From Candidatus Wolfebacteria bacterium GWA1_42_9 (GTDB lineage Bacteria > Patescibacteriota > Minisyncoccia > UBA6257 > JAGOQP01), in the NCBI GenBank assembly GCA_001793775.1, contig MGIN01000027.1:9855-36066 (forward strand): a stretch of 26,212 bases of DNA, read 5' to 3'. This document shows positions 4,561 to 20,576 of the stretch, piece after piece. The notes under the pieces were generated by a model, which had not been told where the DNA came from, did no database searches, and saw nothing but the letters and a program-made list of their open reading frames with translations. The position numbers and the translations under genes were made by a program. Every line of letters starts with the position of its first letter. Within the stretch, counting starts at the first letter, position 1.

Positions 4561-5424
4561 ATGGGACTAAGGTTGGGACAACATTTTTTAAAAAGCGGTG
4601 AAATTCTGAAAAGAATCATTTCCGCCCTAGATTTAAAAGGGAGGGATTTTGTTGTGGAAATCGGTCCGGGGCACGGAGAACTGACTCGATATTTGGTGGA
4701 ATCTGGTGCTACCGTTATTGCGATAGAAAAGGACAAAAGACTGGTGGAATATCTGAGTAAAAAATTCGAAGCCCGAAGCGCAGAATCCGAAACAATATCA
4801 AAATCTCGAACATTAAATTCAAAACTGAATGTAATCGAAGGTGATGCTCTTGAGGTTTTACCAAACCTAACTCACAACTCACAACTCACAACTCACGACT
4901 GGAAATTAGTTGGTAATATTCCTTACTACATCACCGGGCACCTTCTGAGAATTATCGGAGATTTAGAGCAGAAACCGTCTCTAACAATTCTGCTTATTCA
5001 AAAAGAGGTGGCTAAACGTATCTGCGCTAGACCGCTTGAAATGACCCGTTCGAAAAACTCAGGGTCATCCCGAGCGAGTCGAGGGATGAATTTGCTGGCG
5101 GCCAGCGTTCAGTTCTGGGCGGAGCCCGGGATCTTGTTTTACGTGAAAAAAGGAAATTTTAATCCGCCTCCTAAAATAGATTCCGCTGTAATAAAACTGG
5201 AGACCAAAGATATTGCTGGGTATAAAGTAGATACGAATAAATATTATTCATTTACAAAGAAATTATTTAAGCAGCCGAGAAAAACCATTTTAAACAATCT
5301 GCTGGCAGGAGGTTATGAAAAAGAGAAAATTATTGAAGTTCTTGGTGAAGTTGGAATAAATCCAACTAATCGGCCCCAAAATTTGTCTTTAGACGATATT
5401 ATCCACATCAGTTTACTACTATAG
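4561..5424 (+). CDS. rsmA: 16S rRNA adenine dimethyltransferase RsmA/KsgA, carrying in-frame repeat-derived insertions
   Basis: LGQHFL, VEIGPGHGELT, IEKD, GDAL, VGNIPYYIT, QKEVA, F.PPPKIDSA, F.QPRKTI.NNL and RPQNLS motifs. Confidence 0.95.
   Translation: MGLRLGQHFLKSGEILKRIISALDLKGRDFVVEIGPGHGELTRYLVESGATVIAIEKDKRLVEYLSKKFEARSAESETISKSRTLNSKLNVIEGDALEVLPNLTHNSQLTTHDWKLVGNIPYYITGHLLRIIGDLEQKPSLTILLIQKEVAKRICARPLEMTRSKNSGSSRASRGMNLLAASVQFWAEPGILFYVKKGNFNPPPKIDSAVIKLETKDIAGYKVDTNKYYSFTKKLFKQPRKTILNNLLAGGYEKEKIIEVLGEVGINPTNRPQNLSLDDIIHISLLL
4762..4826 (+). repeat. 7-nt-periodic element in frame in rsmA
   Basis: AAATTCG AAGCCCG AAGCGCA GAATCCG AAAC...; encodes FEARSAESETISKSRTLNSK between the IEKD and GDAL motifs. 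Confidence 0.65.
4869..4896 (+). repeat. Perfect heptamer tandem repeat (AACTCAC)x4 inside rsmA
   Basis: Four exact copies; encodes LTHNSQLTTH before the NIPY motif. Confidence 0.95.
5041..5088. repeat. Double-hairpin palindromic element in frame in rsmA
   Basis: ATGACCC(5041-47)/GGGTCAT(5062-68) and CATCCC(5066-71)/GGGATG(5083-88); encodes MTRSKNSGSSRASRGM. Confidence 0.75.
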
Positions 5425-6334: not shown

Positions 6335-7888
6335 ATGAACGGCCTTTTTAACAAAACCCTTTCTGTTTTTGTCTTAATAGCTTTTGTTTCTACGTTGACT
6401 TTCGGTTTTTTTCTCCAACCTAAGAAAGCGGAGGCGGGCTGGCCGACCACGGTCATCGCCGATATCCAGGGTGCTTTGAAGTGGACTTGGGAAAAAATAG
6501 AGACGGTATGGGATAAACTCGACAAAAAATATCGTGATATTATTGTCCGTATTATTATCGCCAAGATGCAGATGGATATTATCAGATCGATTGAGGGAGG
6601 AAATTTGTATGTTTCCGATTGGGGAGGTTTTCTTAAAGACACCGTTACCGAGCTGGTTTTCAATGAGTTTAACGAATATGTCCGCAAGGCGAGCGACGGC
6701 GAGGTGGATCTTTGTGTTCCTTACAGCGCCCAACTAATGGCTTTGTCGCTCGTTTCTTTGGGGCTGGCTTCCGGGGTCGGTCAACAATATTACGGGCTGC
6801 CTATCAGATGCACTTTTGATGAATTTAAGGCCAATCTTCAAAACACCTATGATTTTGTCCAGCGAGGCGGCTGGGCGGCTTATGACATCGCCTTTTCCCC
6901 GGGCGCCAATCCGTACTGGATGGCCTGGAGATTAGAGGATTCTATTGTAAGAAGAACAGCCGAGGAAAAAGAAAAGAAAAAAACAGAGGCCGAATCTTCG
7001 GGGGGCTATCTGGGGAACAAAACCTGTCTTGAATCGGAAGCAGGCACTCGCGAGGAGGTGGTAGCTATTTGTTCTGATCCGGATCTGCGTGACGAGGGTG
7101 AAACTCAACAGGAATGTGTAGACAGTATTATGGGGTCAAAATCGGGTAATAAATGTTTAAGAGAGGGTATAATTACTCCGGGAACGGCGGTGGCTGATTC
7201 GGTGATGTCGGCTATCGGAGGAGATTTTGATTATGCAGCCAATGTCCAGAGCGCCATTGCCGCCATTGTTAATGCTTTTGTAGGAAAAATTATAAGGAAG
7301 GGGTTGGCTTCCGGCGCCTCCCAATCCAGTGATTCCTATGGAATAGAGGAAGGAGACCTGACCGGCTCCGGATTCGAGGGATTTGAAGGAGAAAGACACG
7401 AACAGGACTTAAAAGACGCTCAAGAGAAATACGACGACACTCTCTATTATTTGAACAATGACCTGATCCCCGCCGTTCAACGGGTTCTGGCTCTGATTCA
7501 GCAGAAAAACCTTGAGAGTTGTGCCGCCACCCTTCCTTCGGCTGAAATAGACGAAGGTGGAGGGACCCAAAAAACCTATACAATTACCGACCTGATTGCC
7601 CTGGTTAGAGCTTTGGATGCGGTATCTGTTCAGGCTGGGCAGGAGGCAGAAACCAACAGAGCCGAGATAGATTCTTTATTAGCCGACACGGCGGCGACCG
7701 AAGAGCAAATCATAGACGCTTTAACTAGATACGATTCTTTTTACAAAACATACAAAGTCATAATGCAGGACGTTGAATCTGTCTCTGCCGGTCAGGACGG
7801 AAGTCTTTTAATTGTATTGGATAGTGTTTATAACGCTCTGTCAGCGGATGAAATATTCTGTCCGGCACTCCCTTCCACTTCTCCTTAA
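6335..7888 (+). CDS. Secreted Cys-containing hypothetical protein associated with the T4SS-like cluster
   Basis: Signal-peptide-like N-terminus ending PKKAEA; 8 Cys; GGW...NPY and IITPG segments; acidic C-terminal half. Confidence 0.8.
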   Translation: MNGLFNKTLSVFVLIAFVSTLTFGFFLQPKKAEAGWPTTVIADIQGALKWTWEKIETVWDKLDKKYRDIIVRIIIAKMQMDIIRSIEGGNLYVSDWGGFLKDTVTELVFNEFNEYVRKASDGEVDLCVPYSAQLMALSLVSLGLASGVGQQYYGLPIRCTFDEFKANLQNTYDFVQRGGWAAYDIAFSPGANPYWMAWRLEDSIVRRTAEEKEKKKTEAESSGGYLGNKTCLESEAGTREEVVAICSDPDLRDEGETQQECVDSIMGSKSGNKCLREGIITPGTAVADSVMSAIGGDFDYAANVQSAIAAIVNAFVGKIIRKGLASGASQSSDSYGIEEGDLTGSGFEGFEGERHEQDLKDAQEKYDDTLYYLNNDLIPAVQRVLALIQQKNLESCAATLPSAEIDEGGGTQKTYTITDLIALVRALDAVSVQAGQEAETNRAEIDSLLADTAATEEQIIDALTRYDSFYKTYKVIMQDVESVSAGQDGSLLIVLDSVYNALSADEIFCPALPSTSP

Positions 7889-15715: not shown

Positions 15716-15760
15716 GCGGATTTACCCTCAAAAATTTTATCTGATAAAACTTAGGAGGGT
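15716..15760. repeat. ~45-bp palindromic element, intergenic copy (second copy inside mutM)
   Basis: ACCCTC/GAGGGT outer stem and TTTTATC-T-GATAAAA inner stem; 36/45 identical to 19928-19972; followed by 9-mers AACTGATTC AACTGATTG ATGCTGATA. Confidence 0.85.
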
Positions 15761-19649: not shown

Positions 19650-20576
19650 ATGCCCGAACTTCCTGAGGTTCAAACCATCGTCACTGATCTGAAAAGGAGA
19701 ATTATCGGCAAGAAGATTGCCGATTTCTGGACCGACACTCCCCGAATTATAAAAGGTTTCTCGCCGAACGATTTTAAAAGAGAAGTTGTCGGGTTTGAAA
19801 TCGCCGACGTTCAAAGACGGGGGAAAAACATTCTTTTTTATCTTGAAAAAACAATAAGAAAAAGAAAGGATAAAAAAATTATGCTGGCTCATCAGAAAAT
19901 GACGGGCCATTTCTTGATTGGGCGCTGGCGGATTCACCCTCCAAAATTTTCTGAAGGAAAACTTAGGGGGGTAAAAAGGGTTGATGCCACGGTAAAAGGA
20001 CCAATTGCCTCCGATCCCTATAACCAGTATATCAGAGTCATTTTTAGGCTAGATAACGGTTGGGAACTGGGCCTCTCCGATTTGAGGAAATTTGCCCGAA
20101 TTACCGTCGGCCCTCCCCAAAAAATAGAACACTCGAAAGAAATCGCTTCTCTTGGACCCGATGCTCTTTCTCCAAAATTTTCCCCAAAATATCTTTTTTC
20201 TGTTCTCCAGAAGAGAAAAAAGTTGATTAAGCCAATTCTTCTGGAGCAAAACGTAATGGCCGGAGTAGGCAATATCTACGCCGACGAGGCTCTTTTTCTG
20301 GCCAAGATTAATCCTCAAAGAAAAGCCGCCGGCGTTAAGCGTTCGGAGGTTGAGAGATTGATTAAATCTATTAAAAAAGTTCTTCAAAAGTCTATTCGTT
20401 TAAAAGGGACCTCGGTTATCGACTACCGAGATACTTATGGCCGGAGAGGAAAGTACGACAAAGTTCGCTGGGTTTATGATAAGGAAAAGCTTCCCTGCCG
20501 AATCTGCCGGACGCTGATAAAAAGAGTCAAAATCGGTCAACGCTCTTCCTATTTTTGCCCCCGCTGTCAGAAGTAA
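19650..20576 (+). CDS. mutM: Formamidopyrimidine-DNA glycosylase Fpg/MutM
   Basis: The true start is MPELPEV at 19650 because the catalytic Pro2 needs it. Also RRGK, HQKMTG, GVGNIYADE and the CRIC...CPRCQ zinc finger. Confidence 0.96.
   Translation: MPELPEVQTIVTDLKRRIIGKKIADFWTDTPRIIKGFSPNDFKREVVGFEIADVQRRGKNILFYLEKTIRKRKDKKIMLAHQKMTGHFLIGRWRIHPPKFSEGKLRGVKRVDATVKGPIASDPYNQYIRVIFRLDNGWELGLSDLRKFARITVGPPQKIEHSKEIASLGPDALSPKFSPKYLFSVLQKRKKLIKPILLEQNVMAGVGNIYADEALFLAKINPQRKAAGVKRSEVERLIKSIKKVLQKSIRLKGTSVIDYRDTYGRRGKYDKVRWVYDKEKLPCRICRTLIKRVKIGQRSSYFCPRCQK
19928..19972. repeat. ~45-bp palindromic element, in-frame copy inside mutM
   Basis: GCGGATTCACCCTCCAAAATTTTCTGAAGGAAAACTTAGGGGGGT; encodes RIHPPKFSEGKLRG. 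Confidence 0.85.

Follow-up and report, generated by a model that had tools for sequence, protein, structure and literature searches.

Rickettsia palindromic elements (RPEs) are about 100–150 bp long, are known only from Rickettsia and are present there in high copy number. They are gene-less palindromes that lie in frame in housekeeping genes, where they give rise to an extra surface peptide, and their presence is patchy among relatives (summarised in the MITE review PMC10969869). NTS/dRS3 and the Ssn-related motifs are described in PMC11893778 as hairpin repeats of 20–50 nt that are found genome-wide and flank genes for GIY-YIG proteins of ∼90 aa; according to the same paper, SsnA, a single-domain GIY-YIG ssDNA nuclease, is paired with the NTS hairpins. 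REP/REPIN sequences (RAYT) and IS-derived MITEs are short non-autonomous palindromes that are presumed to be moved in trans. Among organelles, yeast mitochondrial GC clusters and the double-hairpin elements of Allomyces are GC-rich, 30–80 nt long and inserted in AT-richer genomes; they are optional between strains and sometimes in frame.

The locus described here is a double hairpin in the rsmA gene of a Candidatus Wolfebacteria genome (G000). It is contained in a 26,212-nt stretch of DNA (G000:C27:9855–36066), the whole of which is referred to below as the window. Like RPEs, the element is a gene-less palindrome in frame in a housekeeping gene, with a predicted extra surface peptide and a patchy occurrence among relatives. 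Unlike RPEs, it measures 41–45 nt, is present in G000 as a single full copy and occurs across phyla; it is set apart from them by its size and copy number. A defined ATGA flank repeat and putative relatives that carry a nuclease gene are further differences from RPEs. The second of its two hairpins resembles NTS in outline, with GTCA followed by a T(T)CCC...GGG(A)A stem. However, the SRM pattern given in PMC11893778 (HGTCWY...RNCYNB), which matches the NTS control, matches neither positions 5030–5110 of the window nor the soil copies and the copy on contig C24 described below; the whole of G000 contains one match, and the control contains none. The identification of this hairpin as an SRM was therefore rejected. 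The element also differs from NTS in that, among its putative relatives, the GIY-YIG gene is enclosed by the two arms of one hairpin, and in its ATGA flank signature and in-frame intragenic copies, features that term searches of PMC11893778 did not return.

With REP/REPIN sequences and IS-derived MITEs, the element shares a short, non-autonomous, palindromic build, presumed movement in trans and a flank that resembles a target-site duplication. It is further similar to MITEs in its CCC.../...GGG inverted ends, with ATGA on both sides in G000, in a second genome (G060) and in a soil contig (L134). In contrast to both groups, no Y1 transposase (RAYT/IS200/605; PF01797) was found in G000, which is 86% complete, with a profile that matches the control genomes, and no TnpB was found in G000 either; among the relatives found, those that contain a gene all encode GIY-YIG nucleases. 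We know of no parent IS for the rsmA element. Unlike REPs, which are extragenic, it is located in a coding region. The yeast GC clusters and Allomyces elements differ in being organellar, and to our knowledge they have neither a sequence relation to the rsmA element nor comparable nuclease cassettes.

The double-hairpin insertion in rsmA

The 551-kb genome (∼42% GC, 32 contigs) has Paceibacteria-like CPR bacteria as its relatives. Its rsmA (KsgA) gene is located on the + strand at positions 4561–5424 of the window and comprises an ORF of 287 aa (Pfam RrnaAD, E 6e-42), and the protein aligns lengthwise to B. subtilis KsgA (6ifs/7v2l). The inserted segment, on the same strand, begins with an ATGA at 5041–5044, which is presumed to be a duplicated target, and continues with the 41-nt core of the element (5045–5085), which starts with CCC and ends with GGG. 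It is followed by ATGAAT (5086–5091), corresponding to the native Met176 and Asn177 codons of the conserved MNLL motif; both residues are invariant in an alignment of six sequences (the query, four same-species variants and the nearest homologue). Empty orthologous sites contain a single ATGAAT. The length of the insert is 45 nt. As an ATGA stands at either end (5041–5044 and 5086–5089), its exact borders can be shifted by 4 nt, and the length of the flanking repeat is 2, 4 or 6 nt depending on the reading.

Two overlapping hairpins in frame in rsmA had been reported in a preliminary description of this DNA, and they were confirmed at 5041–5089, with the difference that they share TCAT (5065–5068) instead of CAT. 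Hairpin 1 (5041–5068) has arms at 5041–5047 and 5062–5068, which form 7 perfect bp around a 14-nt loop, and in its stem the left ATGA pairs with the central TCAT. Hairpin 2 (5065–5089) has arms at 5065–5071 and 5083–5089, again with 7 perfect bp, and an 11-nt loop; it contains the 19-nt core TCCCGAGCGAGTCGAGGGA at 5068–5086. A single long but imperfect hairpin, whose loop is formed by TCAT, is an alternative fold of the 45 nt. Since the segment is only slightly out of the ordinary in its folding energy (z = −1.9 for 5031–5098 and z = −1.1 for the 51-nt unit), its sequence taken by itself is not decisive; the decisive evidence is comparative.

In the protein, the roughly 15 residues that had been estimated to precede MNLLAASVQ correspond to exactly 15 codons, T162–M176 (equivalently M161–G175), inserted in frame between ...ICARPLE and NLLAASVQ. 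The 29 orthologues aligned, drawn from its own family and order, all lack these residues, and at this site the nearest relative, G009 (52–56% identical), reads ...ICAKSPQ-MNLL. The element is missing in all 18 other same-family genomes in which rsmA was found, and in most of the order. All four same-species RsmA variants (99–100% identical) contain the insert, and one of them is present on 18 contigs; it is therefore not an assembly artefact. In the AF2 model of RsmA (mean pLDDT 89, pTM 0.87), the insert is a coil between helices 148–154 and 178–186, and its 10-residue block has a mean pLDDT of 53. The equivalent loop in B. subtilis KsgA reads ADP-SSKEYGS-LSIAVQ, and its length varies across KsgA proteins. 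The segment is a real, lineage-specific palindromic insertion that is fixed in the species. The earlier comparison with palindromes that spread into coding regions is also supported, as neither the peptide nor its DNA is present in the orthologues, and related copies of the element do exist elsewhere.

Related copies and hairpin families

The best 120 RsmA homologues in a large protein collection, of which 108 were parsable, were compared at the insertion site. A basal loop is present in 53 of these 108, and 55 contain 5–40 extra residues at the same site; one of the homologues (P0017) is the third to carry a G000-type insert. In the DNA of six genomes, the site has a common architecture, in which ATGAAT is followed by a palindrome (CCC...GGG) and by ATGAAT again, compared to the single ATGAAT of empty sites. 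The palindromes of G203, G158, G044 and G272 contain 11–14 perfect pairs (z −4.9 to −7.0). The elements of G000 and G060 have imperfect arms (z −1.1 and −2.8, respectively), and their left side is limited to ATGA. The reading frame is kept in every rsmA-site insertion seen, and none contains a stop codon. This single loop site is thus a hotspot for different palindromes, which are found in about half of the closest homologues. The preliminary description had also called rsmA a hotspot, and this is correct for the loop, but not in the intended sense of several insertions along the gene.

The suggested genome-wide search, performed with short-word BLAST and fuzzy patterns, returned no second full copy of the element in G000, but it did reveal matches to the core on contigs C6, C24 and C7. 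At two of these places the 19-nt core recurs with a longer loop, namely in frame in infB (C6) and downstream of tRNA-Gln (C24). The infB copy is located in a loop in which most relatives have ∼26 fewer residues. This loop belongs to the G domain of IF-2 (C6:39760–39860), and the ∼26 extra residues, located between GAYEIE and KITFIDTPGH, come from three consecutive hairpins. In relatives the same loop is occupied by other inserts, namely (PSTSSGQA)x4 in the case of G023 and, in G221, a hairpin of a related kind. Among 301 genomes of the order, the core pattern has nine matches in six genomes (five besides G000), and the reversed control has none. The other core matches comprise the one at the same infB loop in G221, one in frame in a MurC-like ORF in G259, and intergenic ones. 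Rfam identified only tRNAs at the C24, C6 and C7 loci, and it gave no credible match for positions 4950–5180 of the window up to an E of 10.

The same double hairpin is present at the same rsmA site in G060 (PEUU01000034.1, Ca. Jorgensenbacteria), which belongs to a different family (f14) from G000. The 41-nt cores agree at 37 of 41 positions. In a codon alignment, the inserts are identical at 41 of 45 nt, compared with 436 of 756 (58%) over the remainder of rsmA (Fisher p 2.5e-6), and third codon positions match at 14 of 15 in the insert, compared with 113 of 252 elsewhere in the gene. Because the 19-mer served as bait in the searches that led to G060 and the soil contig L134, identity is unbiased only outside it, where it is 22/26 and 19/22, respectively. 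G060 was the sole match in an exact 25-mer search of one genome per species. The exact 19-mer was found in 73 metagenome contigs with GC contents of 39–74%, and the range of the core therefore extends far beyond CPR bacteria; in viral contigs the 19-mer had no match. Around 25 of the 73 contigs contain intergenic copies, and around ten carry a composite of the left half and the core.

The copy in L134 (68% GC) is identical to the G000 element at 38 of 41 positions. It interrupts an ATGA that forms the stop/start junction of two genes, the first of which, to judge by its terminal sequences, is an aspartate-kinase-like ORF. An ATGA stands at either end of this copy, so the upstream stop and the downstream start survive and both genes are intact. 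No recurrent partner gene was found near the soil copies, and the neighbors examined were unrelated genes. Among the copies, three pairs located just outside the core covary (tca/tga, gcg/cgc and tcg/cga). Two candidate regularities were rejected. Complementarity between the central linker and the flank is seen in ATGA/TCAT and, in weaker form, in TG/CA and CG/CG, without being general; an apparent frame preference (S-R-A-S...R-G in rsmA, infB and murC) is based on ∼3 independent events and is not significant.

Small GIY-YIG genes are found in all genomes discussed here for their rsmA-site palindromes, with 2–9 each in G272, G158, G203, G044 and G060 and 7–8 in G000. A hairpin whose perfect 15-nt arms begin with ATCCCGTTAGAG encloses such genes in G272, G158 and G203. 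These ends are also the ends of the rsmA-site element of G272 and, over ATCCCGTTAGA, of that of G044, and one G203 cassette has arms like those of the G203 rsmA element. The 11-mer end TCTAACGGGAT occurs in 70 copies in G272, 55 in G158, 38 in G044 and 15 in G203 (reversed control, 0). Most of these copies form opposite-strand pairs 60–125 nt apart, i.e. gene-less hairpins, and most of the hairpins, with lengths of 70–125 nt, are located directly before start codons. ATGA on the left and GAA on the right flank 10 of the 17 elements read (chance p about 1e-35), and the right flank of these 10 resembles a gene start (ATG AAR...). At gene starts, the lengths of most elements are not multiples of three. 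Kinship between the rsmA element of G000 and the ATCCCGTTAGAG family is suggested by the shared site, the shared flanks and ends of ∼9 nt, which is a similarity short of a full alignment.

In G000, two GIY-YIG genes lie exactly inside hairpins that are also present in this genome as gene-less copies. On C18, the gene is enclosed exactly between CCCCATTAGAT and the complement of this sequence, and the same hairpin occurs in short gene-less copies. At C15:1651–1851, a small GIY-YIG gene lies between the arms of a member of the ACCCTCC...GGAGGGT hairpin family, which has ∼14 copies in G000; copies in the window are located at 15716–15760 and 19928–19972, and one is in frame in the mutM gene of the window. 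The preliminary description had proposed to look for a RAYT, an IS200/605 transposase or a GIY-YIG gene flanked by the rsmA hairpin. The last part of this proposal was productive in that GIY-YIG genes are present, but those in G000 use other hairpin families, and none is bracketed by the rsmA double-hairpin element. When a GIY-YIG profile was applied to the 73 metagenome core loci, an ORF was found in two fetched loci, and inspection of one of them, L122, showed that the ORF does not bracket the core. A search for DUF559 gave one match, and NCBIfam returned nothing specific for the small GIY-YIG proteins.

Proposed origin and spread of the element

We consider it likely that the 45 nt represent a gene-less, non-autonomous member of a superfamily of ATGA-seeking hairpin elements. 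Such elements would start with CCC, end with GGG and land at ATGA(A), leaving a short repeat on both sides. Because ATGA(A) usually represents a start codon, most copies would come to lie directly upstream of a gene, where they would be harmless. The copy in G000 would have landed instead on the internal Met-Asn codons (ATG AAT) of rsmA. Its survival could be explained by a length of 41 + 4 nt, which is a multiple of three, by the absence of a stop in the reading frame and by its position in a disordered surface loop, so that it would be read through as 15 extra hydrophilic residues, probably with a near-neutral effect on RsmA. GIY-YIG nucleases acting in trans on hairpin DNA may drive, or may once have driven, the spread of these elements, as is suggested by the ends and flanks that are shared in the sister genomes; such a role would parallel that of SsnA, which has been paired with NTS hairpins (PMC11893778). 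We infer that the element moves, as well as its mode of movement and its translation.

The palindromes could alternatively have been made in situ, by template switching or fold-back repair at a mutational hotspot ATGAAT, with nothing moving. Such an origin would agree with the different palindromes that appear in each lineage at exactly the same site with the same short flanking repeat, with the complementarity between the central TCAT and the ATGA flank and with the lack of a transposase among the genes found. It does not account for the same 41-nt sequence (38/41) at an unrelated locus of an unrelated high-GC organism, for the dispersal of the core in 73 contigs or for palindromes with the ends of the rsmA-site elements at many loci, 15–70 per genome; moreover, the termini shared within G272 suggest donor copies elsewhere in the same genome. 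We regard an in-situ origin as quite improbable. The excess nucleotide identity and the copies at unrelated loci argue for spread over local origin or chance. Chance is what an ordinary lineage-specific loop expansion would require for the symmetry of the DNA, and the variable loop length of KsgA and the low fold z values (only −1.1 to −1.9) fit such an expansion. However, it would not explain why the identity to the G060 insert is 41/45 when the rest of the gene is at 58%, why the core pattern is found nine times and its reversed control never, or why near-identical copies exist outside CPR bacteria, and it has very little probability in our estimation.

Another alternative is that the segment is an old functional structure, an mRNA or DNA hairpin involved in regulation or protein binding, that was precisely lost many times. 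Nucleotide conservation far above that of the gene and the covariation of three pairs outside the core would be expected of such a structure, and the flanking direct repeats would permit clean loss. This explanation is nevertheless unlikely: the segment would have to have been lost in the 18 other same-family genomes with rsmA and in most of the order, in unrelated bacteria the same element is intergenic or lies in genes other than rsmA, no Rfam family matches it, and the covariation is equally expected if a nuclease requires the hairpin. The element might, finally, be untranslated, owing to ribosome hopping between ATG AAT-like sites, as in T4 gene 60 and the mitochondrial 'byp' elements, or to removal from the RNA, and the matching ATGA on both sides of the hairpin is reminiscent of bypassing. 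All rsmA-site insertions seen are in frame and free of stops, though, as selection for read-through predicts and as bypassing would not need, and the copies at gene starts, which do not depend on read-through, mostly have lengths that are indivisible by three. We therefore consider bypassing or RNA removal to be highly improbable.

A mobile, ATGA-seeking hairpin element, the origin that we favor, may belong to a wider class, which we put forward only tentatively. It would be a new class of minimal mobile DNA in which hairpin arms enclose a gene for a ∼90-aa GIY-YIG (Ssn-like) protein. The unit would home to ATGA(A), mostly at start codons, and shed gene-less hairpins of 40–125 nt across phyla, which in ultra-small bacteria would be found in frame in loops of essential genes (rsmA, infB and murC). 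No description of this element or of in-frame palindromes in CPR bacteria was found in the literature by peptide, DNA word or topic. If the favored interpretation is true, a tiny selfish element remodels translation genes that are essential to streamlined bacteria, and some of the unusual loop insertions in CPR proteins are parasitic DNA and not adaptation. The ATGA target, the defined ends and the candidate enzymes encoded in hairpin-enclosed GIY-YIG genes would then allow the spread of gene-less hairpins to be studied. Spurious peptides of this kind would also inflate protein novelty in metagenome annotation, and their recognition would clean alignments and trees.

Other repeats and insertions in rsmA and in G000

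The preliminary description had counted the double hairpin as a third independent insertion in rsmA, beside heptamer repeats. This count is not upheld. The perfect (AACTCAC)x4 array at 4869–4896 leaves the protein with the same length as its orthologues, and one relative reads LTYNSKLTTNNYKL there; the array replaces native codons, adds none and is not an insertion. The region at 4762–4826 is an older insertion that is common to G000 and its nearest relative, G009. One of the same-species RsmA variants (P0123) lacks five residues (NPPPK) of a conserved motif. At C22:∼6848–6900 of G000, an ORF starts with MDPETHSTSSGQAKTCQNC, and its HSTSSGQA is a translation of the element's left-half motif, CCCATTCGACAAGCTCAGGG.

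Structural RNA genes of G000 also contain palindromes and small GIY-YIG genes. A perfect palindrome of 20–22 nt, CCCTGCCTGCCGGCAGGCAGGG, occurs at least 15 times in the genome (C3:∼4307, C6:39090, C6:41356, C9:13874 and others), and one of its copies lies within ∼100 nt of extra sequence that directly follow GGATGAAC, close to where the 16S rRNA gene has its 5′ end. Inside the 16S rRNA gene (C3:2587–2799) there is a GIY-YIG pseudogene, which contains two stop codons and is surrounded by an inverted repeat of 16 nt (CCCAGCTCTTTTGGCA on one side, the complement on the other). Small GIY-YIG genes at C6:38863–39075 and C1:2156–2362 lie in or next to tRNA genes, one of which was split. In these tRNA-associated cases, each side of the GIY-YIG gene has its own copy of either the 5′ part of the tRNA or a 55-nt flank.
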